Source: Candidatus Limnocylindrales bacterium
GTDB taxonomy: Bacteria; Chloroflexota; Limnocylindria; Limnocylindrales; CSP1-4
DNA length: 64,000 nucleotides
Direction: 5' to 3'
NCBI GenBank assembly: GCA_036392215.1
Contig: DASVYJ010000091.1
Location: 1,115-65,114 of the forward strand
This document shows positions 30,609 through 56,179 of the stretch, piece by piece. Numbering within the stretch: position 1 is the stretch's first letter; each line of letters begins with the position of its first letter. The notes beneath the pieces are model-generated. The model did no database searches, was not told the DNA's origin, and was given only the letters and a program-made list of their open reading frames with translations. The translations under genes were made by a program, and so were the position numbers.

Positions 30609-31528
30609 CGGGCGGCCTCCCCCTCGCTCGCCGGTTCGCCGAGCTCGACCAGGCCGCGGGCGTACTCCTCGGCGTTCGGGATCCTGGTGTGCCACAGGTA
30701 GCGGTCCTCGGCGAAGGAGAGACCGCGGCCCTTCACCGTGTTGGCGACGATGACGGTCGGTCGACCGTCGCCCTCGGCCGCGGTGGCCAGGGCGCCGACG
30801 ATGGCCGCCATGTCGTGGCCGTCGATGTCGAGGACGCGCCAGCCGAAGGCGGCCCATTTCGCGACCAGCTCGCCGGGCGCCTCCGGCGGCAGGCGGTCCT
30901 CGTGGTCGGCGCCCTGCCAGCCGTACTGCTGGAGGCGGTTGTGGTCGACGATGGCCACGAGCCGGTCGAGCTCGTAGCGGGCGGCGACGAAGGCGGCCTC
31001 CCAGACTTCGCCCTCCTGGCACTCCCCGTCGCCGACGAGCACGTACGTGCGGGCGTCGCGGCCCTGGAGGCGCAGGCCGAGGGCGATGCCGACCGCGGCC
31101 GAGATGCCCATCCCGAGCGAGCCCGTCGACATGTCGAGCCCGGGCAGGCGGGTCATGTCGGGGTGCCCCTGGAGGCGCGATCCGGCGCTGTCGAACGTGG
31201 GCAGCTCGTCGAGCAGGAAGTAGCCACGCAGGGCGAGCGTCGCGTACAGACCGACGCTGGCGTGGCCCTTCGACAGGACGAAGCGGTCGCGGTCGGGCCA
31301 CTCCGGCTCCGCCGGGCGGATGCGCAGGACGCCGAAGTACAGGGCGGCCAGGATGTCAGCCTCGGAGAGGGAGCCGCCGAGGTGGCCGACGCCGCTGGCG
31401 TAGACGGTGCGGAACGTCTCGACGCGGATGCGGCGGGCGGCCTCGGTCAGGCGGGCGAGCTCGGGCTCGGTGGCGAGTCCTGCGAGGTCGTCGGGTGCGG
31501 CGGGAACGGGCGCGAGCGAGGCGGTCAT
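30605..31528 (-). CDS. transketolase-family protein, N-terminal (TPP-binding) subunit
   Basis: 307 aa with TPP motifs (GHLGGSLS, GDGECQEG). Confidence 0.85.
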   Translation of the reverse strand: MTASLAPVPAAPDDLAGLATEPELARLTEAARRIRVETFRTVYASGVGHLGGSLSEADILAALYFGVLRIRPAEPEWPDRDRFVLSKGHASVGLYATLALRGYFLLDELPTFDSAGSRLQGHPDMTRLPGLDMSTGSLGMGISAAVGIALGLRLQGRDARTYVLVGDGECQEGEVWEAAFVAARYELDRLVAIVDHNRLQQYGWQGADHEDRLPPEAPGELVAKWAAFGWRVLDIDGHDMAAIVGALATAAEGDGRPTVIVANTVKGRGLSFAEDRYLWHTRIPNAEEYARGLVELGEPASEGEAAR

Positions 31529-34202: not shown

Positions 34203-35093
34203 TCAGCGCGACGGCGTGGAGACCCTGGCGGACCGGGCGACGGCGGTCAGCTTGTCCCACAGCGAGCCGGCGTTGAGCGTCTGGATGTGCTCCATCATGT
34301 AGCCCTGCCCGATGTCGACCGGGTAGCGCTCGGCGAAGTCGACCCGGGCGACCGTCTCCTCGCGCGACCAGCCCTTGGCGACGGCGACCGCGACGGCCGT
34401 CTTCCACTCGAGGAGCATGGCCCGCTGGACGTCCAGGTACTTCGGCGTCGTCACCGGGCCGTGGCCGGGGACCAGGATGTCGACGTCCAGGGCGCGGATC
34501 CGGTCGAGCGAGGCGAGCCACTGGTCGACGTCCGACGTCATCAGCCAGGTCTGGCACTCACAGAAGACGGTGTCGCCGGTGAAGACGACGCGCTCCTCGG
34601 GCACGTGCACGGCGACCTGGCCGGGCGTGTGGCCCGGCGTGTGGAGCAGGTGGAAGGTGTGGTCGCCGACGCGGAGGGTGAGGTCGCCGGTGAAGACGAC
34701 CGTGCCCTTGTTCGGGTCGCGGTAGTACTCGTCCCGGTCGGGGATGAGGGGGGCGGCCTCGGGGTCGTCGGTCGGGACGGCCTCCAGGGCGTAGGCGAAG
34801 GGGTCCAGGTCCGGCGTCGGGACCATGAAGTTGTCGTACAGGCCCTGGTGCTCGACGACGGTGACGCCCTTGAACCAGTAGTTGCCGAAGATATGGTCGA
34901 CGTGGTGCTCGGTGTTGATGAGGTAGCGGAGCGCCCCGTGCGACTCCGCCTCCTGGCGCATCGCGACGGCCCTCGTCGGCAGCTGCGGGGTGTCGATGAC
35001 GACGACGCCGTCCGAGGTGGTGACGAAGCTGGGGTTGCAGCCGCGCAGCCGGGTCGTCGTCCGGACGTTCGGGGTGACCTGCTCCAAGTCCAT
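34203..35093 (-). CDS. MBL-fold metallo-hydrolase
   Basis: Start MDLEQVTP (aa 93 of the track ORF). Motifs HVDH, HTPGHTPG, GD and GHG. Confidence 0.75.
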   Translation of the reverse strand: MDLEQVTPNVRTTTRLRGCNPSFVTTSDGVVVIDTPQLPTRAVAMRQEAESHGALRYLINTEHHVDHIFGNYWFKGVTVVEHQGLYDNFMVPTPDLDPFAYALEAVPTDDPEAAPLIPDRDEYYRDPNKGTVVFTGDLTLRVGDHTFHLLHTPGHTPGQVAVHVPEERVVFTGDTVFCECQTWLMTSDVDQWLASLDRIRALDVDILVPGHGPVTTPKYLDVQRAMLLEWKTAVAVAVAKGWSREETVARVDFAERYPVDIGQGYMMEHIQTLNAGSLWDKLTAVARSARVSTPSR

Positions 35094-35116
35094 CGAGTTC
35101 GTCTCCGGGGCTGCGG

Positions 35117-35902
35117 CTACTGGGTCGCGGTGAGGCCGCCGTCGATCGTGAGGATCTGGCCGGTCACGAACGAGGAGGCGGGCGAGGCGAAGAAGATGAC
35201 CGGCCCGACCAGGTCGCGTGTCTCGCCGACGCGGCCGAGGGGGACCCGGCTGACGATGCCGGCCTTGAAGTCCGGGTCGCCGAGGAGCATCGCCACCTGG
35301 GGCGTGTCCACGAAGGTGGGGGCGATGGCGTTCACGGTGATGCGGTGCTTGGCCCACTCCGTCGCCCACTGGCGGGTGAGCGAGCTGACCGCGCCCTTCG
35401 CCGCGACGTAGGCGGAGTAGCCGGCGTTGATGCCGAGCTGGGCCCGGACCGAGCTGATGTTGATGACCCGGCCGCCCTCACCCTGGGCGATCATCGCCCG
35501 GGCCGCGGCCTGGGTCGCGACGAGCGTGGAGCGTAGGTTGAGCTCCATGATCCAGTCCCAGGCGTCGCGGGGATAGGCCTCCGCGTCGAACAGGACCTTG
35601 CCGGCGCCGCCCCCGACGGCGTTGACGACGATGTCGAGCCGCCCGAAGCGCTCCCGGCCGGCCGACACGATCCGCTCGGCCTCGGCCTCGCTGGTCAGGT
35701 CGCCCGACAGGGCGAGGGACTCCGCGCCGACTGCCCGGACCTGCTCGGCCGCCGCCTCCGCCCGGCCCTGGTCCACGTCGGCCACGAAGACCTTCGCCCC
35801 CGCCGCCCCGAGGGCGGTCGCCAGGGCCGAGCCGATGGCGCCGCCGCCGCCGGAGACGAAGGCCACCCGGCCGGTGAGCCTGAACGTGTCGATCGGATCC
35901 AT
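35117..35902 (-). CDS. SDR-family oxidoreductase
   Basis: TGxxxGIG-type Rossmann motif (SGGGGAIG), NAVG, S...YxxxK (YVAAK). AGGGAGAG SD. Confidence 0.85.
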   Translation of the reverse strand: MDPIDTFRLTGRVAFVSGGGGAIGSALATALGAAGAKVFVADVDQGRAEAAAEQVRAVGAESLALSGDLTSEAEAERIVSAGRERFGRLDIVVNAVGGGAGKVLFDAEAYPRDAWDWIMELNLRSTLVATQAAARAMIAQGEGGRVINISSVRAQLGINAGYSAYVAAKGAVSSLTRQWATEWAKHRITVNAIAPTFVDTPQVAMLLGDPDFKAGIVSRVPLGRVGETRDLVGPVIFFASPASSFVTGQILTIDGGLTATQ

Positions 35903-35949
35903 GCTGTCTCTCCCTCTGGGATGGGGCGCCGGGTGGCGGGACTTCCCGC

Positions 35950-37479
35950 CTAGTTCCCTGGGAAGACCAGGCTCAGGGTGCCGCGCTTGCCGGGCTCGGG
36001 CCAGCGGATCGTGACCTCCTTCTGCTTGGTGAAGAAGCGGATGCTGTCCTCGCCGCGCATCTGGAGGTCGGCGAAGGCCGAGCCGCGCGTGCCGCCGAAG
36101 CTGAGGTAGCCGGCCGGCACCGGGATCGGCACGTTGATGCCGATCATCGGCACGTCGACCTCGAGCTCGAAGCGCCGGGCGGCGCCGCCGTCGGTCGTGA
36201 AGATCGCCGTACCGTTGCCGTACTGGTGGGCGTTGATGAGGCTGACCGCCTCGTCGAAGGTCGCCGCCCGGACCATGCCCAGGACGGGCCCGAAGATCTC
36301 CTCCTGGTAGATCGTCATGTCGGGCGTGACGTGGTCGAAGAGCGTGACCCCAAGGTAGAAGCCGTCGGGGAACTCGGGGTGACGGAACGGCCGGCCGTCA
36401 TGGACCAGCTCGGCGCCCTCGGCCTCGCCCCGCTCGATCCACTCGACGATCGACGCCCGATGCTCGGCGGAGTAGATCGGGCCCATGTCCACGCCGGGCT
36501 CCATCCCGGGGCCGATCTTCAGGCGGGCGATCCGCTCCTCGAGCATCGGCCGGAGGCGGTCGCCGGCGTCGCCGACGGTGATGACGAGAGCCTGGGCCAT
36601 GCAGCGCTCGCCGGCCGAGCCGAAGCCCGCCGCGACGGCCGAGTCGGCCGCGAGCTCCATGTCCGCGTCGGGCAGGACGATCATGGCGTTCTTCGCGCCC
36701 GTGTACGCGCCGACGCGCTTGCCGGCCGCGGTGCCCTTCTGGTGGACCATCCGGCCGACGGCGGTCGAGCCGACGAACTGGATGGCGGCGATGCCGGGAT
36801 GCTCGAGGATGGCCTCGACCGCTTCGCGGCCGCCGTAGACGACGTTGAAGACGCCGTCCGGGAGCCCAGCCTCCCGCCACAGCTCGGCCTGGAGCTGGGT
36901 CGCGCCCGGCGTGTGCGAGGACGGCTTCCAGACCAGGGTGTTGCCGGTCATCAGGGCCAGCGGGTAGATCCACATCGGGACCATCGCCGGGAAGTTGAAG
37001 GGCGTGATGGCCGCGGCCACGCCGAGCGGCTGGCGGAGTGTCCGCGCGTCGACCTTGGTCGAGACATTCGGCGTGTTCAGGCCGGCCAGGTGGGTCGGCA
37101 GGCCGCAGGCGAACTCGACCGTCTCCAGGCCGCGCATCACCTCGGCCAGGGCGTCCGGGAACGTCTTGCCGTGGTCGCGGGTGATGAGGCGGGCCATCTC
37201 CTCGCGGTGCTCGTAGACCAGGGCCCGGTAGTTGAACAGGATCTGGCTCCGGGCGATGAGGGGCGTGTCCCGCCAGGCCGGGAACGCGGCCGCGGCCGCC
37301 GCGACAGCGGCGTCGACCTCGGCGGCGCCGCCGCGCGGGACCCGGGCGATGACCTGGCCGGTCGCGGGATCGAAGACAGGCCCGGTCTGCTCGGGCAGGA
37401 CCTCGACCGGGCGGCCGGCGATCCAGTGCGACAGGATCGGCAGGACCGCCGTCGGCGCAGCCGGGACCTGGGTCGTCAT
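35950..37479 (-). CDS. mmsA: CoA-acylating methylmalonate/malonate-semialdehyde dehydrogenase (second paralog)
   Basis: 509 aa, highly similar along its whole length to CDS 24903..26447 (for example LPILSHWIAGRPVEVLPEQTGPVFDP). Confidence 0.85.
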   Translation of the reverse strand: MTTQVPAAPTAVLPILSHWIAGRPVEVLPEQTGPVFDPATGQVIARVPRGGAAEVDAAVAAAAAAFPAWRDTPLIARSQILFNYRALVYEHREEMARLITRDHGKTFPDALAEVMRGLETVEFACGLPTHLAGLNTPNVSTKVDARTLRQPLGVAAAITPFNFPAMVPMWIYPLALMTGNTLVWKPSSHTPGATQLQAELWREAGLPDGVFNVVYGGREAVEAILEHPGIAAIQFVGSTAVGRMVHQKGTAAGKRVGAYTGAKNAMIVLPDADMELAADSAVAAGFGSAGERCMAQALVITVGDAGDRLRPMLEERIARLKIGPGMEPGVDMGPIYSAEHRASIVEWIERGEAEGAELVHDGRPFRHPEFPDGFYLGVTLFDHVTPDMTIYQEEIFGPVLGMVRAATFDEAVSLINAHQYGNGTAIFTTDGGAARRFELEVDVPMIGINVPIPVPAGYLSFGGTRGSAFADLQMRGEDSIRFFTKQKEVTIRWPEPGKRGTLSLVFPGN

Positions 37480-37547
37480 CGTGTTCGTTCTCCCTCTCTG
37501 GCAGCCGTCGCCTCGGCGACGAGCGTGGTGACGGTGGGGCGGCGCGT

Positions 37548-38642
37548 TCAGGCCGGTCGGACGTCGGGGTTGGGGAGCAGCACGTCGCGGACGGCTGCCA
37601 TCAGGTCGTGGTACGAGCCGACGAACGCGCGCAGCGTGCGGACGGCAGGCCCGAAGGTGTCGAACTCGGCCGGCGTGAGCCCGTCCGGCTCGTAGGCCCG
37701 CCGGAAGTCGGGAAAGCGCGCCTCGAGCTCGGCCACGATCGCCGGGTCGACGGGGCGGTCCATCCTAGGTTCGGGGACGATGCCGCTCCCGTTGAAGCGG
37801 ACCTGCCACTGGTGGGTCAGGGTCATCGCCACATCGCCGCCGACGAGCTCCGTCCAGTGGAGCGGGTGGCGGTAGGCGGCCGAGAGCAGGCGGCTGCGGT
37901 AGCCGCGGGCCTGGAACAGCTCGTAGGCTCGCTTGAAGACGGCGATGCCAGCCCAGTTCGGGGCGGTCGGGTCGACCGCCAGGTCGTCCCGCTCGACGAG
38001 GACCTTCAGCCAGTCGTCGAGGCGGCCGATCATGATCGTGACGATCGGGGTCATCGCCGAGGTGTCCTGGCCCGCCCCTTCCCGGCGCGCCAGGCCACGC
38101 TCGACCGCCTCCGCCGCGGCGAGGGCCTGCGGGACGCTGAAGGAGACCGTGGCGTTGATGTTCACGCCGCGCGCGGTCGCCTCCTCGATCGCCTCGATGC
38201 CGGCCGAGGTCGCCGGGAACTTCACCTGGATGTTCGGGCCGAGCCCGGCGAAGCGGACGGCCTGCTCGACCATCCGGCCGGGGTCGCGGTAGTTGGCCGG
38301 GTTGGTCTGCACGGACAGGCGGCCCTTGCGGCCGCCCTCGCGCTCGAAGACGGGCTCGAGCACGGCGGCGCCGCGGACCGCCATCTCCTCGATGACCTGC
38401 CAGGCGATCTCCACCTCGGACGCGGTCGGCCGGGCGTCGGCGATCTCGCGCACCCGCGGCAGCCACGTCGCCCGGTCCTTCTTCATCACCTCGAGGACGA
38501 TGGACGGGTTGGACGTTGCGCCGGTCGCCCCCCGCGCGACGGCGTAGGCCAGCTCATCGACGTCGCAGGAGTCGTTCCAGTAGTCGGTCGGCGTCTGCTC
38601 GGTCATCCGCAGGAGCGGACTGTCCACCAGCGTGGTCGCCAT
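37548..38642 (-). CDS. tal: transaldolase
   Basis: Start MATTLVDSPLL (aa 18 of the track ORF; a later M is possible). Motif GATGATSNPSI and the Schiff-base lysine region. Confidence 0.8.
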   Translation of the reverse strand: MATTLVDSPLLRMTEQTPTDYWNDSCDVDELAYAVARGATGATSNPSIVLEVMKKDRATWLPRVREIADARPTASEVEIAWQVIEEMAVRGAAVLEPVFEREGGRKGRLSVQTNPANYRDPGRMVEQAVRFAGLGPNIQVKFPATSAGIEAIEEATARGVNINATVSFSVPQALAAAEAVERGLARREGAGQDTSAMTPIVTIMIGRLDDWLKVLVERDDLAVDPTAPNWAGIAVFKRAYELFQARGYRSRLLSAAYRHPLHWTELVGGDVAMTLTHQWQVRFNGSGIVPEPRMDRPVDPAIVAELEARFPDFRRAYEPDGLTPAEFDTFGPAVRTLRAFVGSYHDLMAAVRDVLLPNPDVRPA

Positions 38643-38691
38643 CTCTTCGGGGATACCTCCGGCACTCGTGCTCGCCGTATGAGACCAAATC

Positions 38692-38722
38692 ATCGATCAT
38701 CGATGATAGGGCCGAACGGCCC
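38692..38722 (+). promoter_or_regulatory. 31-bp composite palindromic motif, copy 1 (ATCGATCATCGATGAT-A-GGGCCGAACGGCCC)
   Basis: A relatively AT-rich palindromic half next to a GC-only palindrome (GGGCCG-AA-CGGCCC). It lies in the divergent promoter region between tal (start 38642) and the GNAT gene (start 38921). Confidence 0.5.
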
Positions 38723-38920
38723 GTGGAGCGCGCGTCGGCCGCGATCCCCTCGGCCTTCGGCGACCTCCGCCGCGCCCGTCGACGACGGGGTCCGCCAGCC
38801 GCTCCGTCCGTCCCGACAACGGGCCGTTCAGCCCTGAGCCGCCCGCTGAGGCGTCCATACGATAGCCCGACCGAGCGCCCCGGGCGCGCGAGCCGGGGAC
38901 GAGGGAGCGGGAGGACGGCG

Positions 38921-39823
38921 ATGGACGTGCTGGTCGGCGAGCGGGCGTCGGGAACGGACGGCGGGCAGGGGTTCATCATCCGCGAGGCGGTCCTCGAGGA
39001 CTGGTGGGAGTGCGGCCGGATCTGCTACGAGGCGTTCGGGACCGTCGCCCGAGCCCACGGCTTCCCGGAGGACTTCCCCTCGGTCGAGGCCGCTGCGGAG
39101 CCGATCCGGGGCATGATCCTCAGCCCCTCCTTCTACGGCGTCGTGGCCGAGTCGGACGGCCGGGTCATCGGCAGCAGCTTCCTCGACGAGCGAGCCGCGA
39201 TCCGAGCCATCGGCCCCGTCACCGTCGATCCGAAGACCCAGGACGTCGGCGTGGGCCGGGCCCTGATGCAGGCGATGCTCGACCGTGTCGAGGCCTGCGC
39301 TGCCCCCGGCGTCCGGCTCGTCCAGATCGCCTACCACAACCGCTCGCTCAGCCTCTACACCAAGCTCGGCTTCCAGGTCCGGACCGCGCTGGCCGCCATG
39401 CACGGGCCCGCGATCGCCCTGCGGCTGCCGGGCTACGACGTCCGCCCGGCGACCGCCGCGGACGAGGCCGCCTGCAACGCGCTCTGCCGCCGCGTGCATG
39501 GGTTCGCCCGTGCCGGCGAGGTGGGCGACGCCATCGCGGCGGGGAGTGCCCTCGTCGTTGAGCGGCTCGGTCGCATCACCGGCTACACGACCGGTGTCAC
39601 GTACTGGACCCATTCGGTGGCCGAGACAAACGACGACATGCGGGCGCTGATCGGGGCGACCGCCGACTACGGGACGCCGGGCTTCCTCGTCCCGACCGGC
39701 AACGCCGAGCTCTTCCGCTGGTGCCTCGAGCAGGGTCTGCGGGTCTTCTTCGTGACGACCCTCATGACGGTCGGGATGTACCACGAGCCCGAGGGCGTCT
39801 ACTTCCCGTCCGTCGGCTACTGA
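38921..39823 (+). CDS. GNAT-family N-acetyltransferase
   Basis: ATG after GGGAGGACGGCG. 300 aa with acetyl-CoA-binding motif regions (VGVGRALM, RSLSLYTKLGF). Confidence 0.7.
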   Translation: MDVLVGERASGTDGGQGFIIREAVLEDWWECGRICYEAFGTVARAHGFPEDFPSVEAAAEPIRGMILSPSFYGVVAESDGRVIGSSFLDERAAIRAIGPVTVDPKTQDVGVGRALMQAMLDRVEACAAPGVRLVQIAYHNRSLSLYTKLGFQVRTALAAMHGPAIALRLPGYDVRPATAADEAACNALCRRVHGFARAGEVGDAIAAGSALVVERLGRITGYTTGVTYWTHSVAETNDDMRALIGATADYGTPGFLVPTGNAELFRWCLEQGLRVFFVTTLMTVGMYHEPEGVYFPSVGY

Positions 39824-39946
39824 CCCTTCGCAAGGCTGGTCCTCGCGCGCCCCGGCCGCCTGGCGCCCGGCGGACGCGGACCGCGTTTCGCCGCCGCCCT
39901 CCGGCCGGTCCGACGGCCCCTTGCGCCCGGCTGCGCGTGCCCCATA

Positions 39947-39977
39947 ATCGATGATCGATGAACGGGCCGAACGGCCC
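39947..39977 (+). promoter_or_regulatory. 31-bp composite palindromic motif, copy 2 (ATCGATGATCGATGAA-C-GGGCCGAACGGCCC)
   Basis: 28 of 31 positions identical to copy 1, in the same orientation, 1.25 kb downstream and immediately after the GNAT gene. It sits upstream of the membrane-protein gene at 40085. Confidence 0.5.
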
Positions 39978-40084
39978 TTGCCCCTCCCCGGGAAGCCCGC
40001 CGAGTCTGTCGCCCGGCAGGCCCGCCTGCCCGAGTCGTGCGACCGATCCGCTGGAGGGCGCGATCGGACAGTCGGAGGTGTTCG

Positions 40085-40699
40085 GTGGAGACGGAAACCA
40101 GGAACACGATCCCGCTCTGGTTGGCGGTGGCCATCACGGTCTGTGTCTCGTTGCCGTTCGGCATCTGGCTCGGCAACTACAACCTGCCGATCTGGGCCTC
40201 GTTCATCGTGTGGGCCGAGTACTTCGCCCTCGGCGCGAAGCCCTCGGCGCTCAAGATCATGGTCCCGGCCTTCATCCTCGGGGTGATCGTGGCCGAGATC
40301 ATCATGACCGGCTACATGCTCGGCTCGAAGGGGATCGGGACCGGGACGATCCTGTCGGTCGGGGACTGGGCCTTCACGCTCGACAACCTGGTCCTGTTCA
40401 TCGCGTGCTTCATCGGGTTCTGCATCTTCATCTACGCCATGAAGTACTTCCCGGTCACCCAGACGGGCTCCCTGCCGTTCTTCAACGGGATCTCGATGGG
40501 CCTGGCCGTCTTCTTCACCGGCGCCTTCAACAAGGCCGTCGGGGCGGGCATCGACCCCAATCTGCTCCCCGCGGTCGCGGGCGTCGGGGCGGTCCTGGCC
40601 GGCCTGCTCGGCGCGTTCCTCGGGTGGTTCAACATCGTGATCATGTTCCCGCGGCAGGTCCCGTCCGCCTCCGCAGGCCGCGAGCCGGCCAAGGTCTGA
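40085..40699 (+). CDS. integral membrane protein (possibly DUF1097-like)
   Basis: GTG at 40085 with a GGAGG SD. The track ORF start at 40037 is Arg-rich. 4-5 TM helices. Lower GC and different codon usage than the flanks. Confidence 0.55.
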   Translation: METETRNTIPLWLAVAITVCVSLPFGIWLGNYNLPIWASFIVWAEYFALGAKPSALKIMVPAFILGVIVAEIIMTGYMLGSKGIGTGTILSVGDWAFTLDNLVLFIACFIGFCIFIYAMKYFPVTQTGSLPFFNGISMGLAVFFTGAFNKAVGAGIDPNLLPAVAGVGAVLAGLLGAFLGWFNIVIMFPRQVPSASAGREPAKV

Positions 40700-40837
40700 T
40701 CGACGCCACGTCGGGTCCGGAGCCGGGCGTGCCGAGGACGGCTGGAGGAGCCGTCCGGCACCCTGCGGCGCCGCGCAACGGGGAAGGGGGTGCATCGGGC
40801 AGACCTTGGACCTGACGTAGCGGCCCCGCTGGAGTGA

Positions 40838-40866
40838 CGGGTCCTCGTCGCTCGGACGAGGACCCG
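40838..40866 (+). terminator. stem-loop terminator candidate (12-bp perfect stem, 5-nt loop)
   Basis: cgggtcctcgtc-gctcg-gacgaggacccg, about 140 nt downstream of the 40085..40699 stop and upstream of the 40937 gene. Confidence 0.45.
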
Positions 40867-40936
40867 TGCCCGACCGGCACACGGCGTCGGGAGACGCCGA
40901 CCAACGCGCGAGCATGCACCCTGGAGGTCATGTCGA

Positions 40937-42721
40937 ATGGCAGTCGCCATGAAGGAAGAAGTCCTGGGCCAGTTCCTGGGCAGTGAGGACTTCCCGGTCG
41001 ACTGGAAGTCCGAGGCCGAGAAGGAACTCTTCTGGGTCTACGACGATCTGCACTGCCCGCACCCCCTCAGCCCGATGTACTTCGACATCGGCGGCTGGTG
41101 GCTGAGCTGCGACCACATGTTCCGGCGGTTCGGCACGCCGTTCGCGACCGACTGGATCGCCAAGAACGTCAACGGCTACCTGTACACCGCGGCCATCCCG
41201 GCCGACGCCTCGTTCAAGGTCGAGGCCTCCGAGTACGACAGCCAGATCCAGGCCGTCGTGCCAGTCGATCCGGGCTATGCCGGCAAGATCGGGACGTACC
41301 TCGGGGCCGTCCTGCCGACCTACGGCAACGAGTTCACGGCCTGGTGGCGGGACCGACTGCGCCCCGAGATGGAGCGCAACTTCGCCTACCTCGAGGACAA
41401 GTTCGACGAGGTCGAGCGCGACGACTGGAGCCTGCCCCAGCGGGCCGTCCTGCTCGAGGACGCGATCGACATCCACGATCGCCACTGGAAGATCCACTGG
41501 ATGCTGAACTTCGCCCAGCTGTCCGCGACGCTCAACCTGCGGGCGGTCATGGAGAAGACCCACGGCAAGATCGACGAGGTCCTCCTGGGGCGCCTCCAGA
41601 ACTCGGCCAAGGACCGCAACTGGGATTCCATCGAGGCCCTCTGGAAGATGAAGGAGGAGGCCAAGGCCGATCCGGTCCTGGCGCCCGCCTTCAAGCACGA
41701 GACGGCCCACGAGATCATCGCTGCCCTCAAGGAGACCGAGCGCGGACGCCAGTTCATCGCCGATCGGGTCGTGCCGTACCAGAAGGAGTATGGCTGGCAC
41801 GCGGTCTGGAGCCACGAGTTCATCTTCCCCAGCGTTCGCGAGCACATGGAGCCCGTGATCGAGCTGGTCCGCGGCTACATCGAGACGGACTACGACTACC
41901 CGAAGACGGTCGCCGCGCTGGCCGCCGACATCGACGCCGCCGCCCGCGAGATCCTCGAGGGGCTCGAGGGCGAGGCGCTCGAGGAGATGCGGGCCGCCAA
42001 CGACATCAACCTCAAGATGGCCCCGCTCACCCCGGACCATCACTTCTACATCGACCAGGGGGCGAACGCGCATCTCCGGATGGCGCTCATCCTCTGCGGT
42101 CGCAAGCTCGTCGAGCTCGGTGCGCTGGACGACGCCGGCGACGTCGTCTTCTTCCAGTACAACGAGCTGCGGGTCTTCATGGGCGACCCGTCGGCGATGG
42201 ATGGCAAGGCCCTCGTCGCGGAGCGCAAGGCCGAGCGTGAGAATGCCTACACCTTCCGGCCGAAGGAGTGGATCGGCACCTGCACGCCGACGCAGCTCGC
42301 CTTCCCGTACCTGAACCTGTGGGGCTTCCCCGACAAGTTCTACCGGAAGGAGAGCACCGTCGCCGGCCAGATCAACGGCATCGGCGGCTCGCCGGGCGTG
42401 GTCGAGGGCGTGGCCCGGGTCGTCCTCCGCGAGGACCAGTTCGACGACGTCCGCGCCGGCGACATCCTGGTCTGCCAGATGACGAACCCGGCCTGGGTCG
42501 TCCTCTTCACGAAGATCGTCGGCCTCGTGACCGACGCCGGCGGCACGGTCTCGCACCCGGCCGTCCTGTCGCGCGAGTTCGGCATCCCGGCCGTCGTCGG
42601 GACGTCCGTGGCCACCCAGCAGATCAAGAACGGCGACCGGGTCCGCATCAACGGGACCACGGGCCTGGTCGAGGTCCTCGAGGCGGCAGTCCAGTCGTCC
42701 AAGGCCGAGTTCGGGATCTAG
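40937..42721 (+). CDS. PEP-utilizing-enzyme mobile (phospho-His) domain protein with a ~470-aa N-terminal domain of unrecognised family (rifampin-phosphotransferase / PpsA-like architecture without an ATP-grasp domain)
   Basis: ATG with a GGAGG SD. C-terminal 110 aa = PEP-utilizers domain (GSPGVVEGVARVV...CQMTNPAWVVLFTKIVGLVTDAGGTVSHPAVLSREFGIPAVVG). The N-terminal domain lacks the GGK ATP-grasp motifs. Markedly lower GC than its neighbours. Confidence 0.75.
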   Translation: MAVAMKEEVLGQFLGSEDFPVDWKSEAEKELFWVYDDLHCPHPLSPMYFDIGGWWLSCDHMFRRFGTPFATDWIAKNVNGYLYTAAIPADASFKVEASEYDSQIQAVVPVDPGYAGKIGTYLGAVLPTYGNEFTAWWRDRLRPEMERNFAYLEDKFDEVERDDWSLPQRAVLLEDAIDIHDRHWKIHWMLNFAQLSATLNLRAVMEKTHGKIDEVLLGRLQNSAKDRNWDSIEALWKMKEEAKADPVLAPAFKHETAHEIIAALKETERGRQFIADRVVPYQKEYGWHAVWSHEFIFPSVREHMEPVIELVRGYIETDYDYPKTVAALAADIDAAAREILEGLEGEALEEMRAANDINLKMAPLTPDHHFYIDQGANAHLRMALILCGRKLVELGALDDAGDVVFFQYNELRVFMGDPSAMDGKALVAERKAERENAYTFRPKEWIGTCTPTQLAFPYLNLWGFPDKFYRKESTVAGQINGIGGSPGVVEGVARVVLREDQFDDVRAGDILVCQMTNPAWVVLFTKIVGLVTDAGGTVSHPAVLSREFGIPAVVGTSVATQQIKNGDRVRINGTTGLVEVLEAAVQSSKAEFGI

Positions 42722-42733
42722 GGAACCATCGAG

Positions 42734-43447
42734 ATGCGCCGCAGCGCCCCGATCTCACGCAGCACCCTCAGCGACCAGGTCAAGGAGTACCTGCTCCAGG
42801 CGATCATGGCCGGGGAGTTCGCTCCCGGGTCGCGGATCGTCGAGACCCGCGTCGCCCGGGACCTCGGCATCAGCCAGGGCCCCGTCCGCGAGGCGCTGCG
42901 GGACCTCGAGGCGCTCGGCGTGATCGAGAGCACCGCCTTCCAGGGCGCCCGCGTCCGGCACCCGAGCAAGGCCGAGCTGCTGGAGGCGTACGGGATCCGA
43001 GCCGAGCTCGAATCCCTCGGCGCCCGGCTCGCCCTGCCCCGGGTGACGGACGCGGACCTGGAGGAGCTCCAGGACCTCGTGTCGGAGATGCTCCGGGCGG
43101 CGACGCTCGGGGACACCCGCGCGGAGGCCCGCATCGACGCCACCTTTCACACCCGGGTGATCGAGATCGCCGGGAACACGACGCTGCAGCGGGTCTGGCG
43201 CTACCTCGAGCCGGTCTCGCGGACCTACATCACCTTCGTCACCCCCGGCATCGACGCACGTCGGATCGCCGACGTCCACGGCCCGATCGTCGAGGCGCTC
43301 CGGCGCCGCGACCCGGAGCAGGCGGTCGAGGCCGTCCACCGCCACTTCCAGGTCGCCGGGGCACAATTCGTGGCGGGCTTCCGGGACGACCCGGAGGCCG
43401 CGCCCGGGGCCGCGCTCGCGGCGCCAGCCGAGCTGGCCGCAGGCTAG
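42734..43447 (+). CDS. GntR-family transcriptional regulator (FadR/FCD subfamily)
   Basis: HTH region (VARDLGISQGPVREALRDLEALGVIES) followed by an FCD domain. Confidence 0.75.
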   Translation: MRRSAPISRSTLSDQVKEYLLQAIMAGEFAPGSRIVETRVARDLGISQGPVREALRDLEALGVIESTAFQGARVRHPSKAELLEAYGIRAELESLGARLALPRVTDADLEELQDLVSEMLRAATLGDTRAEARIDATFHTRVIEIAGNTTLQRVWRYLEPVSRTYITFVTPGIDARRIADVHGPIVEALRRRDPEQAVEAVHRHFQVAGAQFVAGFRDDPEAAPGAALAAPAELAAG

Positions 43448-43597
43448 GCCGCGGCTGCCAGACCGCCGGGAGGTCCTTCGGGCACTCGGACCGTCCCGTC
43501 GCCGGCCCTGCCCGCGCCGACCGGACCTGCACGCACAGCCACCACGCCGCCACGACACCACCCCGCCGGGCGTTCCGGCGACCGGAGCAAGGAGCAC

Positions 43598-44485
43598 ATG
43601 GACCAGCAGCTGCGACTGTCAGAGGAGATGTCGGCCGGGAGCGCGCGGCTGCGCGTGGACGTGTTCGGCGGTGAGCCGCGCGAGCACGTCCTGGAGGACA
43701 TGAACTTCCTCAACTACCGTCTCGCCGATGTCCGCCTCGAGCCGGCAGTCACCCTCCCCGAGCCTGACATCGTCTGGCACCAGGACGGCGAGAAGGACAT
43801 CTGCTACGAGCAGGGCCGGATGCGCTTCACTGGCCCGTGGCCGGCCGGCCCGATCCAGAAGGTCATCGTCGCCATGCTCGCCCTGCGGATGGAGGCGACC
43901 GGCCTGCATCCCTTCCACGCCTCGGCCGTCCGCTACCGCGACCGGACCGTGATGTTCCTTGGCGGCGAGTCGAACCACGGCAAGAGCATGGCCCAGCTCG
44001 AGGCCTGCCGCCGCGGAGCCCTCCTGGTCTCGACCGAGACGACAGTGGTCGACGAGGCGGCTCGGGCGGTCATGGGCTCGAAGGAGCCGTTCATCAAGAA
44101 GCGCACCGAGGGGACCGAGCGGGCCGACAAGGCCGCCCCCGAGCGCGGCGTCCAGAAGTTCTTCGAGGCGATGCCGACCTGGGAGCTGTACCCGGAGGTG
44201 AGCCCGGTCGACGTCGTCGTCGTGCCGGCGATCGACGGCAACTTCGACCCCACACTGAGCGAGATGATCCCCTTCGAGCGCCAGTTCCAGACGCTCCACT
44301 CGCTCCAGAACTACTTCCTGCTGAACGAGCTGCTGGCGCCGGGCTTCCCGATGCCGATGGTCGACACGGAGGCCCTCCGGCGGACCCGGGCCGGCTTCGT
44401 GGCCCGCTTCAGCGAGCGGCCCTACTACTTCGTCCGCGCAGCGACCCCCCAGGTCCTGATGGACGAGGTCGACAAGGTCATCTGA
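43598..44485 (+). CDS. HPr-kinase-C-terminal-domain-like P-loop protein (putative small-molecule/protein kinase)
   Basis: AAGGAGC SD. The motif LHPFHASAVRYRDRTVMFLGGESNHGKSMAQLEACRRGALLVSTETTVVDE matches the HprK-like Walker A region. 295 aa. The first Mo-hydroxylase gene starts 19 nt after its stop. Confidence 0.5.
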   Translation: MDQQLRLSEEMSAGSARLRVDVFGGEPREHVLEDMNFLNYRLADVRLEPAVTLPEPDIVWHQDGEKDICYEQGRMRFTGPWPAGPIQKVIVAMLALRMEATGLHPFHASAVRYRDRTVMFLGGESNHGKSMAQLEACRRGALLVSTETTVVDEAARAVMGSKEPFIKKRTEGTERADKAAPERGVQKFFEAMPTWELYPEVSPVDVVVVPAIDGNFDPTLSEMIPFERQFQTLHSLQNYFLLNELLAPGFPMPMVDTEALRRTRAGFVARFSERPYYFVRAATPQVLMDEVDKVI

Positions 44486-44504
44486 GCGGAGGCGCGGCAG
44501 CGCG

Positions 44505-45365
44505 ATGCAGACCTTCGCCTACGAGCGGCCGACGACGCTCGCCGAGGCCGTCGCCCTCCTCGAGCGCCACGGCCCAGACGCTCGGCCGCTGGCCGGCGGC
44601 ACGGACCTCGTCATCGGCCTCCGCGACCGGAGCGTGAGCCCGGCGGTGGTCGTCGACCTCAAGCGGGTGGCCGAGCTCTGCTCGGACATCCGGGCGGCGG
44701 ACGGCTGCCTCGTCATCGGGGCGCGGACGGTCATGACCGACGTGATCGCCGACGAGCGGGTGCGGCGGCATTTCCCGGCCCTGGCCGAGGCGGCCAACGT
44801 CGTTGGCTCGATCCAGATCCGCAACCGGGCCACAGTGGCCGGCAACATCTGCAACGGCTCGCCCGCCGCGGACACCACCCCGCCGCTCCTCGTCTACGGG
44901 GCGGTCGTGGTCGTCGCCGGCCCGGCCGGGTCGCGCCGCATCCCGATCGACGACTTCGTCGTCGGGCCGGGCGTCACGGACCTCCGGCGGGGCGAGCTCG
45001 TCACCGCCATCGAGCTGCCGCTGCCGACGGCGCACCAGGGCTCCGCCTACACCCGCCTGACGCGGCGGCGGGGGACCGACCTCGCCTCCGTGACCCTCTG
45101 CGTGTCCGTCGACGAGGCGGGCGTGACCCGCCTGGCCTACGGCAGCGTCGGGCCGCGGGCGTTCCTCGTGACCGACGAGAGCGGTGTCCTGGCCGACCCG
45201 GCCGCGTCGGCCGAGGCGAAGGCGACGGTCCTCGACGGCCTGTTCGCGGCCGCGAGCCCGTCCCCCCGCTCGCTGCGGGCCGGGCCGGAGTACCGCCGGG
45301 CCATGCTCCGCGTCCTCGGAGCGCGGGCGTTGCAGACCGCCGTCGAGCGGCTGGCGAAGGGATGA
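44505..45365 (+). CDS. molybdenum hydroxylase FAD-binding subunit (CoxM/XdhB-like), set 2
   Basis: Motifs LAGGTDL and VAGNICNGSPAADT. 286 aa. Confidence 0.8.
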   Translation: MQTFAYERPTTLAEAVALLERHGPDARPLAGGTDLVIGLRDRSVSPAVVVDLKRVAELCSDIRAADGCLVIGARTVMTDVIADERVRRHFPALAEAANVVGSIQIRNRATVAGNICNGSPAADTTPPLLVYGAVVVVAGPAGSRRIPIDDFVVGPGVTDLRRGELVTAIELPLPTAHQGSAYTRLTRRRGTDLASVTLCVSVDEAGVTRLAYGSVGPRAFLVTDESGVLADPAASAEAKATVLDGLFAAASPSPRSLRAGPEYRRAMLRVLGARALQTAVERLAKG

Positions 45366-45850
45366 CGACGATGCCATCGAGCCTGCCCATCGAGCTCACC
45401 GTCAACGGGCGGCGCCGGTCGATCGAGGTCGAGGTCAACCACACCCTCCTCGACGTCCTCCGCGACGACCTCGGCCTGGCCGGCACCAAGGAGTGCTGCG
45501 ACGTCGGCGAGTGCGGCGCCTGCACGGTCGAGGTCGATGGCCGGGCGGTCAACTCCTGCCTGATGCTGGCGGTCGAGGCCGACGGCGCCGCGGTCACGAC
45601 CGTGGAGGGCCTGGCGACCGACGGGCGGCTGAGCCTGCTGCAGGACGAGTTCCTGGCCAAGGGCGCGGTGCAGTGCGGCTTCTGCATCCCGGGCCAGCTG
45701 ATGGCCGCCCACGCCCTGCTGGCCGGCAACGCCCACCCCAGCGTGGCGGACGTCCACGAGGCGCTGGCCGGCAACCTCTGCCGCTGCGCGGGCTACGAGC
45801 AGATCACCGAGGCGGTCCTGGCCGCCGCGGCCGCAGAGGCGGAGCGATGA
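45362..45850 (+). CDS. molybdenum hydroxylase (2Fe-2S) subunit, set 2
   Basis: Cluster motifs CDVGECGACTV and CGFCIPG...CRCAGY. ATG overlaps the upstream stop. Confidence 0.85.
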   Translation: MTTMPSSLPIELTVNGRRRSIEVEVNHTLLDVLRDDLGLAGTKECCDVGECGACTVEVDGRAVNSCLMLAVEADGAAVTTVEGLATDGRLSLLQDEFLAKGAVQCGFCIPGQLMAAHALLAGNAHPSVADVHEALAGNLCRCAGYEQITEAVLAAAAAEAER

Positions 45851-48117
45851 GCAGCCACGGCAGCGGCATCGGCGCCTCGCCGAAGCGCGTCGGCGGCTAC
45901 GACCGGGTCACCGGGCAGCATGCCTACGTCGCCGACGTCCGGCTGGCCGACGCGCTCCACGCCAAGCTCGTCACGGTCCCGGTCGCCCGGGCCCGGATCA
46001 TCGCCATCGACACGTCGGCCGCCCTGGCCGTACCAGGGGTCCGCTGCGTCCTCACCGCGGCCGACCTGCCCCAGCCGGTGCCCCGCTTCGGCCCCCAGCA
46101 CGAGGACCGGCCGGTCATCGCCGTCGGCGAGACGAAGTACCACGGCGACCCCGTGGCCGCGGTCGCGGCCGAGACGAAGGACGCCGCCGAAGAAGCGGCC
46201 GGTCTCGTCCGCATCGAATACGAGGAGCTGCCCGCGGTCTTCACCGTGGCGGCCGCCCTGGCGCCGGACGCGCCGCTCGTCCAGGACCCGGTCCTCCGGC
46301 CCGGCGACCCGCTGGCAAGCACCAACGTCTTCAATCAGCACCTCGTCGGCTGGGGCGACGTGGAGGCCGCGGAGGCCGACCTCGTCGTCGAGCACGACTA
46401 CTCGTTCCCGATGGTCACCCATTTCGCCATCGAGCCGCACGGCTTCATCGCCGCGCCCGACGGCGACGGGATCGCGGTGTGGAGCTCGATCCAGCACCCC
46501 AACTGGCTCCAGAAGGTCCTCGCCCGGATCCTGGGGCTGCCGCTCTCCAAGGTCCGCGTCCGCGCCCCGGACCCGGGCGGCGGTTTCGGCGGCAAGCAGC
46601 ACGCCAAGTACGAGCCGCTCGTCGCCTTCCTCGCCCTCCGGACCGGGCGGCCCGTCCGCCTCGTCCTGACCCTCGACGAGACGTTCCAGGCCGTCCGGCG
46701 CGCCGCGGCCGCGATCCACGTCCGGACCGGCCTGCGGTCCGACGGCCGGATCGCCTTCCAGGACATCCGGGCGGACTACCTCGTCGGCGCCTACGTCGAC
46801 ATCGCCGACCGCGTCGTCAACAAGGGCAGCTACCCGGGCGCCGGGCCGTACGGCATCCCGGCCGTCCGCATCGTCGCCCGGACCGTCCTGTCGCACACCG
46901 TGCCCTCCACCGCGTTCCGCGGCTTCGGCAACCCCCAGGTCAACTGGGCCGTGGAGTCGAACCTCGACGACGCGGCCCGCCAGCTCGGCCTCGACCCGCT
47001 GGAGCTGCGGCTGCGCAACCTGGCCCACCGCGGCGACGCCTTCATCCCATTCGACACCCACGCCGACGGCGACTGGGAGCAGACCGTCCGCCGGGCGGCC
47101 GAGCTGATCGGCTGGGACAGTCCTGTCCCGCCGGGCCACGGCCGGGGCATCGCCCTCGGCATCAAGTCCGGGCCGACGACCGGTCTTTCGTACTCGACGG
47201 TCCGCCTGCTCGCCGACGGCAGCGTCATCGTCTACGCCGGGACCTCCGACATGGGCCAGGGCGCCCGGACCGTGCTCGCTCAGATCGCCGCCCAGGAGCT
47301 CGGCGCGCCGCTCGACTGGGTGACCGTGGTGATGGGCGACACGGCCGTCGTGCCGTACGATCAGCAGACCTCGGCGAGCCGCTCGACCGTGCTGATGGGC
47401 AACTCCGTCCTGCGGGCCTGCCGCGACGTCCAGCGCCAGCTGGCCGAGATGGCCGCTCGCGTCCACGGTGTGGCCCTCGAGCAGGTCAGCGTGGCCGACG
47501 GCTTCGTCCGCCTGCCGGACCGCGAGCTGCCGATCGTCGAGGTGCTGAAGGCGGGCCTCGGCCGCCTCGGCGGCGAGGTCATCGGCAACGGGGTGATGCG
47601 CAAGGAGATGGAGCCCGAGCATCCCCTCGGCGGCAGCGCGGCCTTCTTCGAGTTCAACTGCACCGCCGTCGAGGTGACGGTCGACGAGGGGACGGGCGAG
47701 ATCACGATCGTCCGCCACGTCACCGTCTCCGACGTGGGCCGGGCCATCAATCCGCTCCAGGTCCGGATGCAGGACGAGGGCGCGGCGATCATGGGCCTCG
47801 GCCACACCCTCATGGAGCACTACATCTTCGACGAGGCCGGCCGCATCCGGAACCTGGGCGCCATCGACTATCGCGTCCCGACGAGCCTCGACCTCCCGGT
47901 CCGCCTGGAGAGCGCGATCGTCGAGAACGCCGACGGGCCGGGGCCCTACGGCTCGAAGGGGATGAGCGAGGGCGCCCTGCTCTGCGTCGCCCCGGCGGTC
48001 GCCGCTGCCGTCCGCGACGCGACGGGGGCCGTCATCCGCGACCTGCCGCTCAGCCCGGAGCGCGTCTGGCACGCCCTCCAGGAGCGGCCGGCGCGCGTCC
48101 CGCTGGAGGTGCCCTGA
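45847..48117 (+). CDS. molybdenum hydroxylase large MoCo-binding subunit (xanthine-dehydrogenase family), unsplit, set 2
   Basis: Start MSSHGSGIG, in frame with track ORF 45184..48117 and overlapping the FeS-subunit stop (ATGA). 756 aa with hammerhead and MoCo domains (GGGFGGK, GQGARTVLAQIAA). Confidence 0.85.
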   Translation: MSSHGSGIGASPKRVGGYDRVTGQHAYVADVRLADALHAKLVTVPVARARIIAIDTSAALAVPGVRCVLTAADLPQPVPRFGPQHEDRPVIAVGETKYHGDPVAAVAAETKDAAEEAAGLVRIEYEELPAVFTVAAALAPDAPLVQDPVLRPGDPLASTNVFNQHLVGWGDVEAAEADLVVEHDYSFPMVTHFAIEPHGFIAAPDGDGIAVWSSIQHPNWLQKVLARILGLPLSKVRVRAPDPGGGFGGKQHAKYEPLVAFLALRTGRPVRLVLTLDETFQAVRRAAAAIHVRTGLRSDGRIAFQDIRADYLVGAYVDIADRVVNKGSYPGAGPYGIPAVRIVARTVLSHTVPSTAFRGFGNPQVNWAVESNLDDAARQLGLDPLELRLRNLAHRGDAFIPFDTHADGDWEQTVRRAAELIGWDSPVPPGHGRGIALGIKSGPTTGLSYSTVRLLADGSVIVYAGTSDMGQGARTVLAQIAAQELGAPLDWVTVVMGDTAVVPYDQQTSASRSTVLMGNSVLRACRDVQRQLAEMAARVHGVALEQVSVADGFVRLPDRELPIVEVLKAGLGRLGGEVIGNGVMRKEMEPEHPLGGSAAFFEFNCTAVEVTVDEGTGEITIVRHVTVSDVGRAINPLQVRMQDEGAAIMGLGHTLMEHYIFDEAGRIRNLGAIDYRVPTSLDLPVRLESAIVENADGPGPYGSKGMSEGALLCVAPAVAAAVRDATGAVIRDLPLSPERVWHALQERPARVPLEVP

Positions 48118-49007: not shown

Positions 49008-49016
49008 GAGGCCTCC

Positions 49017-50996: not shown

Positions 50997-51046
50997 GCGT
51001 CGGACCGACCGTCACGCGCCGGGGACGACGGAGCACGGAGGCCCCG

Positions 51047-56170: not shown

Positions 56171-56179
56171 GAGCCTGTC

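Follow-up and report, generated by a model that had tools for sequence, protein, structure and literature searches.

Class II activator sites of the CRP/FNR type are centred near -41.5. Operators of the GntR family follow the consensus NyGT-Nx-ACNy, with TKGT-N2-3-ACMA for the FadR subfamily (PMC4494728). Our analysis of a 64,000-nucleotide stretch of DNA (hereafter the window) points to a control region which recalls both types of site and departs from each of them. Two 31-bp direct repeats, at 38692-38722 (copy 1) and 39947-39977 (copy 2), are probably two copies of the control region of a conserved catabolic cluster, in which a putative repressor palindrome is joined to a GC-rich promoter element, so that each copy would be a composite cis-regulatory element with two predicted protein-binding modules. 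We place the probability of this reading at roughly 0.7.

The two copies described in the first-pass annotation were indeed recovered with the same sequences and positions, in direct orientation and identical at 28 of 31 positions, and inspection of the ORF list confirmed that only a GNAT acetyltransferase gene (38921-39823, plus strand, 300 aa, assigned by Pfam) lies between them. A degenerate 31-bp pattern, searched with up to three mismatches, matched the window at these two sites only, against 0 matches expected from 100 shuffles. Repeat search stretched the pair to 37 nt (86% identity, spacing of 1255 bp). Outside these 37 nt, where the remnant of a larger duplication was sought, the similarity of the flanks was not above that of shuffled controls, and the duplicated unit is sharply bounded, at 31-37 bp. 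The three differences between the copies concern the palindrome centre and the linker, which are precisely the columns that vary among orthologues, and all the invariant columns are identical in both. Regarding the GC-rich part, exact GGGCCGNNCGGCCC occurs three times in the window for 0.18 expected, close to the chance rate of about 0.3 given earlier, and none of 100 shuffles reached three. With one mismatch allowed, 11 sites were found for 5.3 expected, and since 3 of 100 shuffles reached 11, this looser family of GC palindromes is weakly enriched by count alone. The related GC palindromes at 24712, 24751 and 38821 are present as previously described, and the ORF opening with MIDERAERPL (39951-40286), which overlaps the DUF1097 gene in a different frame, was rightly judged spurious. 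Within 1.7 kb, 25 inverted pairs were counted.

The surrounding genes were compared with approximately 90 related loci from Chloroflexota-like metagenomes, anchored on a gene of the PEP-utilising-enzyme family, 82 of these loci serving for the tally of GNAT presence; at least 584 metagenome stretches encode a relative of this PEP-utiliser. The order of the cluster is conserved, with a leftward operon running from TAL through MmsA and SDR to MBL, and a divergent rightward one running from DUF1097, which is not always present, through the PEP-utiliser and GntR to Cox-like genes. In the window, the leftward operon begins with the transaldolase-family gene TAL (37548-38642, minus strand), followed by MmsA (35950-37479), SDR (35117-35902) and MBL (34203-35369), and the rightward operon begins with a gene for a DUF1097 membrane protein (40085-40699, plus strand), followed by the PEP-utiliser gene used as anchor (40937-42721, plus strand) and by a gene for a GntR-family regulator of the FCD subfamily (42734-43447, plus strand; Pfam GntR and FCD), the candidate repressor for the palindrome. 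As the TAL start is most likely 38642 (MATTLV; Logan gene call), copy 1 lies about 50 bp upstream of TAL and does not touch its start codon. GntR is the sole regulator conserved in the cluster among the related loci. The DeoR gene of the window, by contrast, has a homologue in none of them, and DeoR was accordingly dropped as a regulator of the palindrome.

The first module is the AT-containing palindrome. In copy 1, the 19-bp palindrome ATCATCGAT-C-ATCGATGAT (38689-38707) is the predicted operator of the leftward TAL-MmsA-SDR-MBL operon; in copy 2, ATAATCGAT-G-ATCGATGAA (39944-39962) is that predicted upstream of the DUF1097-PEP-utiliser-GntR operon. A symmetrised matrix built from 90 intergenic sites reads ATnATCGAT-N-ATCGATnAT over 19 bp. 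From the palindrome centre to the gene start, the distance is 56 bp for TAL in copy 1 (42-61 bp in relatives) and 132 bp for DUF1097 in copy 2 (127-212 bp in relatives). Of 80 metagenome loci (66-84% protein identity), most carry the ATCGAT-N-ATCGAT core among the control sequences of the PEP-utiliser operon, as do two Chloroflexi MAGs; dyad sites occupy orthologous promoter regions, of both the GntR-encoding and the divergent TAL operons, in the window and in approximately 60 related loci, counts which overstate the number of independent observations since many of the sites are orthologous. At 17 independent loci, a canonical TTGAC-N16-18-TAnnnT promoter is followed by the palindrome 0-8 nt downstream, and at 13 loci a second palindrome lies 6-10 nt from GCAA[GC], that is, from a TTGC -35 on the TAL strand. 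The palindrome thus sits on, or immediately past, predicted -10 boxes. Where ABC-transporter or UPF0261 genes have been added in front of the operon (L041, L057, L106), it lies at the new operon head, and it also occurs upstream of a separate SDR-MBL pair (L080, L096, L114-119).

The presence of the palindrome followed that of the GntR gene. Both were observed together at about 42 distinct loci of adequate coverage and both were absent from six (L047, L050, L066, L079, L081, L092), the exceptions being two distinct loci (L055/56 and L083) where the palindrome is present and the GntR gene absent within the available sequence; these co-occurrence counts ignore phylogeny. It should be noted that the palindrome has no GT/AC pair and fits neither the family consensus nor that of the FadR subfamily and, because this GT..AC signature (PMC4494728) is lacking, it is co-occurrence that assigns the palindrome to GntR. 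The site also admits a reading as ATCGATN heptads in tandem, three to five of them in L039, L054 and L071; such an arrangement is unusual for FCD regulators, though direct repeats of the NanR type are known. A literature search with the 13-mers, and with ATCGAT together with GntR and operator, returned only unrelated CpG oligonucleotides and primers. A further match at 48977 (CTCGATGATCGAC) was discarded as an operator, being conserved coding sequence at the end of a CoxL-like gene. The palindrome might instead be the operator of another regulator, for example a trans-encoded one, the adjacent GntR binding something else. The departure of the motif from the family consensus, the sites without a nearby GntR at the two exceptional loci and the heptad reading would all suit such a regulator. 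We nevertheless consider it unlikely, in view of the strong co-occurrence of palindrome and GntR gene with joint loss in several clades, of a cluster without any other conserved regulator, and of the presence of the site at the very operon that encodes GntR, which is typical of autoregulation. An operator of the cluster's FCD-type GntR repressor is most likely what the palindrome represents. The shared operator proposed in the first-pass annotation is supported as regards the AT palindrome, which is conserved at about 60 loci, lies at predicted -10/+1 positions and co-occurs with GntR/FCD, and falls as regards DeoR, which has no homologues there.

The second module is a GC-rich 14-mer, GGGCC-N4-GGCCC. 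At the DUF1097 and GNAT promoters and at two other promoters of the window it covers about -49 to -36, immediately next to the predicted -35 hexamer. In copy 2, GGGCCGAACGGCCC (39964-39977, plus strand) directly precedes the predicted promoter of the DUF1097 operon (39978-40007, plus strand), which comprises the -35 TTGCCC (39978-39983), an 18-nt spacer and a -10-like GAGTCT (40002-40007). The GNAT promoter region (38821-38863, plus strand) is arranged alike, with the 14-mer GGGCCGTTCAGCCC (38821-38834), TGAGCC, a 17-nt spacer and the -10 TACGAT (38858-38863). The same geometry was found at the promoter of the dihydroorotate-dehydrogenase-like (preA-like) gene (24683-24725, minus strand), which reads GGGCCGACCGGCCC, TAGTGC, N17 and AATCAT, and, with a one-mismatch 14-mer, upstream of a tyrosine-phosphatase-family gene (26986-27028, plus strand), which reads GGGACGAACGGCCC, TCCGGT, N17 and TAAGGT. 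The 14-mer of the GNAT promoter, GGGCCGTTCAGCCC, also lies upstream of the first mmsA-like gene (24751-24764, plus strand), there without the fixed -10 geometry. The earlier remark that GC palindromes recur in promoter regions can thus be sharpened: the spacing between them and a downstream -10-like hexamer is fixed. All 12 loci of the DUF1097-promoter clade indeed show the 14-mer, TTGnnn, N17-18 and GAnnnT at fixed spacing, and GNAT genes in six contexts (L109, L110, L113, L114, L119 and the window) are all preceded by the GNAT-type arrangement in identical form.

All promoters mentioned here are predictions from hexamer patterns and, because a strict scan of 38600-40120 for sigma-70 promoters and terminators returned 0 matches, they were derived from conservation. 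A hexamer starting with T, followed by N16-18 and nAnnnT, comes after four of the six intergenic 14-mers of the window vs none of the five coding ones; the background of the geometry is 5.6% per strand, and 0.76% when the T is also required. Across loci, where starts were predicted from hexamers, the geometry was found at 40 of 456 14-mer sites vs 9 at control offsets. A GC3-based coding mask labelled known intergenic sites as coding and was left out of these statistics. In copy 1, the 14-mer GGGCCGAACGGCCC (38709-38722) is followed by GTGGAG, with no -35-like TTG, and has the promoter geometry on neither strand, so that we can only infer why it is perfectly retained. Since loci without GntR keep the 14-mer and lack the ATCGAT palindrome, the 14-mer and the GntR operator appear to be separate elements.

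The GC-rich part could also be read as an RNA or DNA hairpin, acting as a 5'-UTR stabiliser, an attenuator or a terminator, and not as a protein site. In line with such a structure, 90% of cells are paired over 13 sequences, with one compensatory pair (U:A 5, G:C 4, G:U 1), and the observed pairing values were reached in 13-15 of 500 shuffles. This covarying pair is, however, a single one and is broken in 3 of the 13 sequences, the 14-mer of the GNAT promoter has the same C/A mismatch in four distant loci, and other instances break different pairs. Moreover, a conserved TTG -35 directly follows the 14-mer on its 3' side, which places the 14-mer upstream of the predicted transcript, and neither a T-run nor a terminator-like site was found in 38600-40120. 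Rfam gave nothing relevant, either over the whole window at gathering thresholds or over 38600-40120 at E<=5, and the fold of the DUF1097 leader (39990-40090) was not more stable than shuffles (z = -0.37). We thus regard the hairpin as improbable, and the 14-mer is predicted to behave like a promoter-proximal protein site. Concerning the TAL promoter of the hairpin clade, three models are possible: a -10 GATTAT/GATGAT with the -35 inside the 14-mer, a -10 TATCAT, or the 14-mer followed by TTTTCA, N16 and GATGCT.

The GNAT gene, absent from all 82 related loci compared, is indeed a lineage-specific occupant of the site. In the relatives, the TAL operon and the divergent DUF1097/PEP-utiliser operon are separated by a single composite element, with no GNAT there; in the window, GNAT lies between these operons with its own promoter, and each operon retains its own copy of the element. 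Homologues of GNAT occur in several other neighbourhoods, and repeatedly adjoin the SDR-MBL genes of the same pathway (L114-119). In a rival reading, GNAT was brought in by a small mobile cassette, either MITE-like or inserted at the motif by site-specific or Campbell-type recombination, and the repeats are its ends or attachment sites. Sharply bounded direct repeats around exactly one gene, the lack of GNAT at this site in all related loci and the variety of neighbourhoods where its homologues are found would be expected of such a cassette. The idea is nevertheless rejected: relatives without GNAT already have a single composite copy, identically placed in the intergenic region and pointing the same way, so that the element is older than the insertion and is part of the host promoters. 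As a unit the cassette fares no better, GNAT homologues in four other contexts not being flanked by the 31-mer, including those of 74-75% identity (L109, L110, L113). In addition, no terminal inverted repeats bound the unit, the copies being direct and of 31-37 bp; none of the 49 window ORFs scanned encodes a recombinase, integrase or transposase; and when 185,579 species genomes were scanned with a pattern that required the GGGCC/GGCCC arms, none showed dispersed copies and only two MAGs matched, each with a single orthologous copy. The proximity of GNAT to SDR-MBL suggests functional linkage over random mobility, and a cassette is, all in all, highly improbable. An att/dif-like recombination site was likewise discarded, since the element is already present at "empty" loci, those lacking GNAT, and none of the scanned ORFs encodes a recombinase. 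That the similarity reflects chance, or a recent neutral duplication without function, is barely credible: only two copies exist in the window and short palindromes abound in GC-rich genomes, but 0 matches were expected, both modules are conserved across loci of 66-84% protein identity, and the constrained positions are identical between copies whose flanks have fully diverged.

Returning to two copies of a control region, the binding proteins and the direction of regulation that we infer would operate as follows. A dimer of the FCD-type GntR encoded by the rightward operon would bind the 19-bp palindrome and block RNA polymerase, until a metabolite of the pathway releases it. The 14-mer, with its centre near -42.5, would be bound by another dimeric factor encoded in trans, or by some part of RNA polymerase, which would aid promoters with a weak -35. 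As the modules are 1-3 bp apart, the bound repressor could also exclude the factor of the 14-mer. A single ancestral element between the divergent operons would have controlled both and, once GNAT with its own 14-mer promoter came to lie between them, each operon would have ended with its own copy, this being the presumed origin of the duplication. More tentatively, and as a possibility we would hold loosely, the 14-mer may be the site of a new trans-encoded activator or RNA-polymerase-associated factor of Limnocylindria-like Chloroflexota, with a regulon that includes GNAT, the pyrimidine-catabolic preA promoter and the cluster; fused to the non-canonical GntR operator, it would form a compact 31-bp switch, in which an activator site is paired with an anti-activator operator. 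Such a switch could drive two divergent promoters, and would have been duplicated whole as these promoters were parted.

Judging from these comparisons of sequence, the locus is a case of ordinary gene regulation, with a binding motif not described before, and the general principles of gene regulation are unchanged. This work offers a motif for the operator, together with a candidate regulator, for a catabolic cluster that is widespread and uncharacterised, in an uncultured lineage of Chloroflexota-like bacteria where hardly any transcription-factor sites are known. If true, the ATCGAT palindrome would represent a non-canonical specificity for an FCD-type GntR regulator, and the GC 14-mer, with its fixed position, may reflect a further promoter signal of wider use in the lineage. 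The locus also suggests how a control region shared by divergent operons can be split by the arrival of a gene between them, both promoters retaining a copy.

Among described systems, the operators of FadR/FCD-subfamily GntR regulators such as PdhR, LldR and GntR (PMC4494728) similarly have a palindrome within the promoter region of the regulator's own operon, one site or two between divergent operons, and extra adjacent half-site boxes about 7 nt away; overlap with the predicted -10/+1 region, as expected for a repressor, is also shared. Unlike them, the predicted half-site is here ATCGAT around a 1-nt centre, with no conserved GT..AC. As in class II activator sites, the 14-mer is dyad-symmetric, abuts or overlaps the predicted -35 at promoters with poor -35 hexamers, is common to several operons and can serve divergent promoters; its sequence differs, with GGGCC-N4-GGCCC over 14 bp instead of TGTGA-N6-TCACA, its position is deduced from predicted -10 boxes, and no candidate activator gene is conserved nearby in the window and related loci. 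With REP/MITE-like GC-rich palindromic repeats, finally, the 14-mer shares the character of a short, intergenic, GC-rich inverted repeat. By contrast with these repeats, it is neither dispersed in the available data nor located at gene 3' ends, and it stands at a fixed distance from -10 boxes, with orthologous positions kept in distant relatives.

Both 31-mers were recovered at 38692-38722 and 39947-39977, where the first-pass annotation had placed them, and a degenerate 31-bp pattern allowing up to 3 mismatches matched only these two copies in the window, none being expected by chance. A repeat search lengthened the pair to 37 nt (86% identity), outside which the similarity between the flanks was not above that of shuffled sequence. 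In the window, whose G+C content is 73%, exact GGGCCGNNCGGCCC occurred 3 times for 0.18 expected, and 11 sites were found with one mismatch for 5.3 expected. A local map was built from Pfam and NCBIfam scans and from the genes called on two near-identical Logan contigs. In this map, copy 1 precedes by about 50 bp the likely start of the transaldolase-family gene (TAL, 37548-38642), which forms a leftward, minus-strand operon with an MmsA-type aldehyde dehydrogenase (35950-37479), SDR (35117-35902) and MBL (34203-35369). Copy 2 stands about 108 bp before the start of DUF1097 (40085-40699), which opens a rightward, plus-strand operon continuing with a PEP-utilising-enzyme family protein (40937-42721), a GntR/FCD regulator (42734-43447), a 295-aa protein (43598-44485), CoxM/S/L-like molybdenum hydroxylase subunits and then a zinc alcohol dehydrogenase. 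The GNAT gene (38921-39823, plus strand) stands between the two copies. The 295-aa protein has no Pfam or NCBIfam match, yet it is 63-87% identical across related loci, better conserved than the adjoining GntR, and is probably a pathway enzyme. Left of the cluster (29664-31528) are transketolase-like genes split into N- and C-terminal parts, a CinA/MoCF-type gene and a cupin; on its right (50993-53350), the DeoR gene is followed by a fused E1-dehydrogenase/transketolase-like gene. Taken with the transaldolase-like gene, these genes suggest that the pathway involves the transfer of sugar or ketol units.

When 185,579 species genomes were scanned once with a pattern, most matches were due to chance, but a nearly identical composite element was retrieved in two Chloroflexi MAGs. 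In one (L015), it lies upstream of DUF1097 and the PEP-utiliser, next to an unrelated gene further upstream; in the other (L020), the TAL and PEP-utiliser-GntR genes are divergent and have a single copy between them. GNAT was absent from the element site in both. A protein-anchored metagenome scan with the PEP-utiliser added 80 loci (66-84% identity), and the tblastn synteny map showed the cluster to be retained throughout the 82 related loci, none of which had a GNAT match. It follows that GNAT occupies this intergenic region in a lineage-specific manner and that the composite element was there before it. The cluster (34203-50111; L029-L108), running from MBL, SDR, MmsA and the transaldolase-like gene to the divergent DUF1097, 594-aa PEP-utiliser-domain protein, GntR, 295-aa protein, CoxM/S/L-like and Zn-ADH genes, is common in soil, peat and sediment metagenomes (at least 584 stretches, as 584 of 600 candidates were confirmed) and apparently uncharacterised. 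In some loci, an ABC transporter and a UPF0261 and PEP-hydrolase-like pair, the latter at 54926-57031 in the window, are inserted at the operon head.

The first-pass proposal of a shared operator was supported for the AT-containing half of the element. Most related loci have ATCGAT-N-ATCGAT, with up to 2 mismatches, in their regulatory region, and 90 intergenic sites gave the 19-bp dyad ATnATCGAT-N-ATCGATnAT, whose 13-bp core was selected by the search itself, so that only the flanking A/T at +/-8 and +/-9 is independent information. At 17 independent loci the palindrome follows a canonical TTGAC-N16-18-TAnnnT promoter within 0-8 nt, often with an additional upstream heptad (ATCGACA ATCGATT ATCGA). 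At 13 loci there is a second palindrome near TAL and, 6-10 nt beyond it, GCAA[GC], which on the TAL strand reads as a predicted promoter, TTGC(-35)-N17-GATTAT(-10), overlapping the palindrome. The most distant group has a TAnnnT box directly next to the palindrome, some 50 bp ahead of the PEP-utiliser start. The palindrome shifts with the operon head where genes are added upstream (L041, L057, L106), and also precedes SDR-MBL where this pair stands apart (L080, L096, L114-119). Such positions point to the behaviour of a repressor operator. A natural variant occurs in one clade, at L054 7009-7110 and its equivalents in L071, L072 and L063, where the control region has grown to 3-5 tandem ATCGATN/ATCAATN heptads and each divergent promoter has its own, oppositely used GC 14-mer. 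An operator-like match, CTCGATGATCGAC (48977-48989), was rejected; it is coding sequence just before the CoxL-like gene stop, conserved for that reason in about 15 related loci, and would be a false positive in a motif scan.

The GntR/FCD gene is the sole regulator conserved in the cluster; the window's DeoR gene (50175-50996) had no homologue in any related locus, many of which reach that far. GntR and palindrome were both present in about 42 distinct loci with adequate coverage and both absent from six (L047, L050, L066, L079, L081, L092); L055/56 and L083 have the palindrome with no GntR within the locus DNA compared, and L049, whose operon head lies outside the locus, was left out as uninformative. 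From this conservation and co-occurrence, we assign the palindrome with moderate confidence as the operator of the cluster's GntR. None of the papers in the library searched has the motif in such a setting.

The GC half is a separate promoter-proximal element. Indeed, three loci without GntR (L047, L050, L066) keep the 14-mer and lack the palindrome, which indicates that the two modules are independent. In the DUF1097 clade (alignment of 13 sequences), G[G/T]GCC-N4-GGC[C/A]C begins 1-3 nt after the palindrome and is directly followed by an invariant TTG, 17-18 nt and GAnnnT, so that it adjoins the predicted -35 of the DUF1097 promoter. GNAT homologues in six gene contexts are preceded by GGGCCGTTC[A/G]GC[C/T]C, a T-hexamer, N17-18 and TA[C/G]GAT; the same arrangement identifies the site noted earlier at 38821 as GNAT's own promoter element. 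This geometry recurs at the preA-like promoter (24725 to 24683, minus strand) and, ahead of a tyrosine-phosphatase-family gene, at 26986-27028. L029 has the 14-mer in place of TTGAC before a TATCCT-and-operator promoter, and in L054, L071, L072 and L063 the ATCGAT heptad array lies between two 14-mers, one per divergent promoter. In the window, 4 of 6 intergenic 14-mers showed the promoter geometry versus 0 of 5 coding ones, for a background of 5.6% per strand (0.76% when the T that follows is required as well); across loci, it was found at 40 of 456 sites versus 9 at control offsets. That the 14-mer acts as a hairpin is unlikely, since covariation was seen in one pair only and is broken in 3 of 13 sequences, a C/A mismatch is retained in the GNAT version across distant loci, and the 14-mer lies upstream of the predicted transcripts. 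It may even mark an undescribed promoter-level regulator in this lineage, the most novel of the readings that survive. At the preA-like gene, the interval from the predicted -10 (AATCAT) to the ribosome-binding site contains an imperfect AT-containing palindrome, CCGTAAATGTTCACGG (24655-24682), which may be an operator for the catabolism of pyrimidine/beta-alanine, with the genes (DHO-dehydrogenase-like, class-III aminotransferase, cytosine/uracil permease). The DUF1097 leader (39999-40036) carries CGAGTC..GGCAGG-N4-CCTGCC-CGAGTC, also conserved in L015, L032 and L064, with the first CGAGTC overlapping the predicted -10; the whole leader fold showed no unusual stability (z = -0.37), and this arrangement could be a further regulatory site.

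In relatives, TAL and DUF1097 diverge from an operator that is followed, on the DUF1097 side, by the 14-mer; the distance from the operator centre is 42-61 bp to TAL and 127-212 bp to DUF1097. Copy 1 retains the TAL-side spacing (56 bp) and has GTGGAG in place of the lost TTG; in copy 2, the spacing on the DUF1097 side (132 bp) is retained, as is the promoter downstream. The copies differ at three bases, the free one at the centre and two in the linker, exactly those that vary among orthologues, and all invariant columns of the orthologue alignment are identical in both, a pattern that speaks for purifying selection on both as functional copies. The sharply bounded duplication could be a precise one at insertion, or a larger one whose unconstrained parts have decayed. 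The suggestion that the repeats are the ends of a cassette or MITE carrying GNAT is rejected by the criterion that the first-pass annotation itself had set, as GNAT orthologues occur without the repeats and the repeat without GNAT. GNAT is also found on L114-119, from a Limnocylindrales MAG and a further metagenome contig, where it diverges from the SDR-MBL pair of this pathway and a ATCGATAATCGAT site and a 14-mer lie between them. Its presence in the window is probably linked functionally to the pathway, and not random. An 18-nt inverted repeat, GCGCCCCGGGCGCGCGAG (38875-38892) and CTCGCGCGCCCCGGCCGC (39842-39859), 89% complementary, closely surrounds the GNAT ORF, 29 bp before its start and 19 bp after its stop, and may be due to chance in GC-rich DNA.

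With regard to known systems, the 14-mer is centred near -42.5 of the predicted promoters, the position occupied by class II activator sites, although its binding protein is only putative. The main caveat to the GntR assignment, weighed in its grading, is that operators of the FadR/FCD subfamily normally match TKGT-N2-3-ACMA, with exceptions such as BioR and NanR (PMC4494728), whereas the ATCGAT palindrome has no such match. Its heptad extensions resemble the extra half-site boxes that the same survey notes 7-12 nt from the main site. The composite element as a whole is a known kind of system, a transcription-factor operator combined with promoter architecture.
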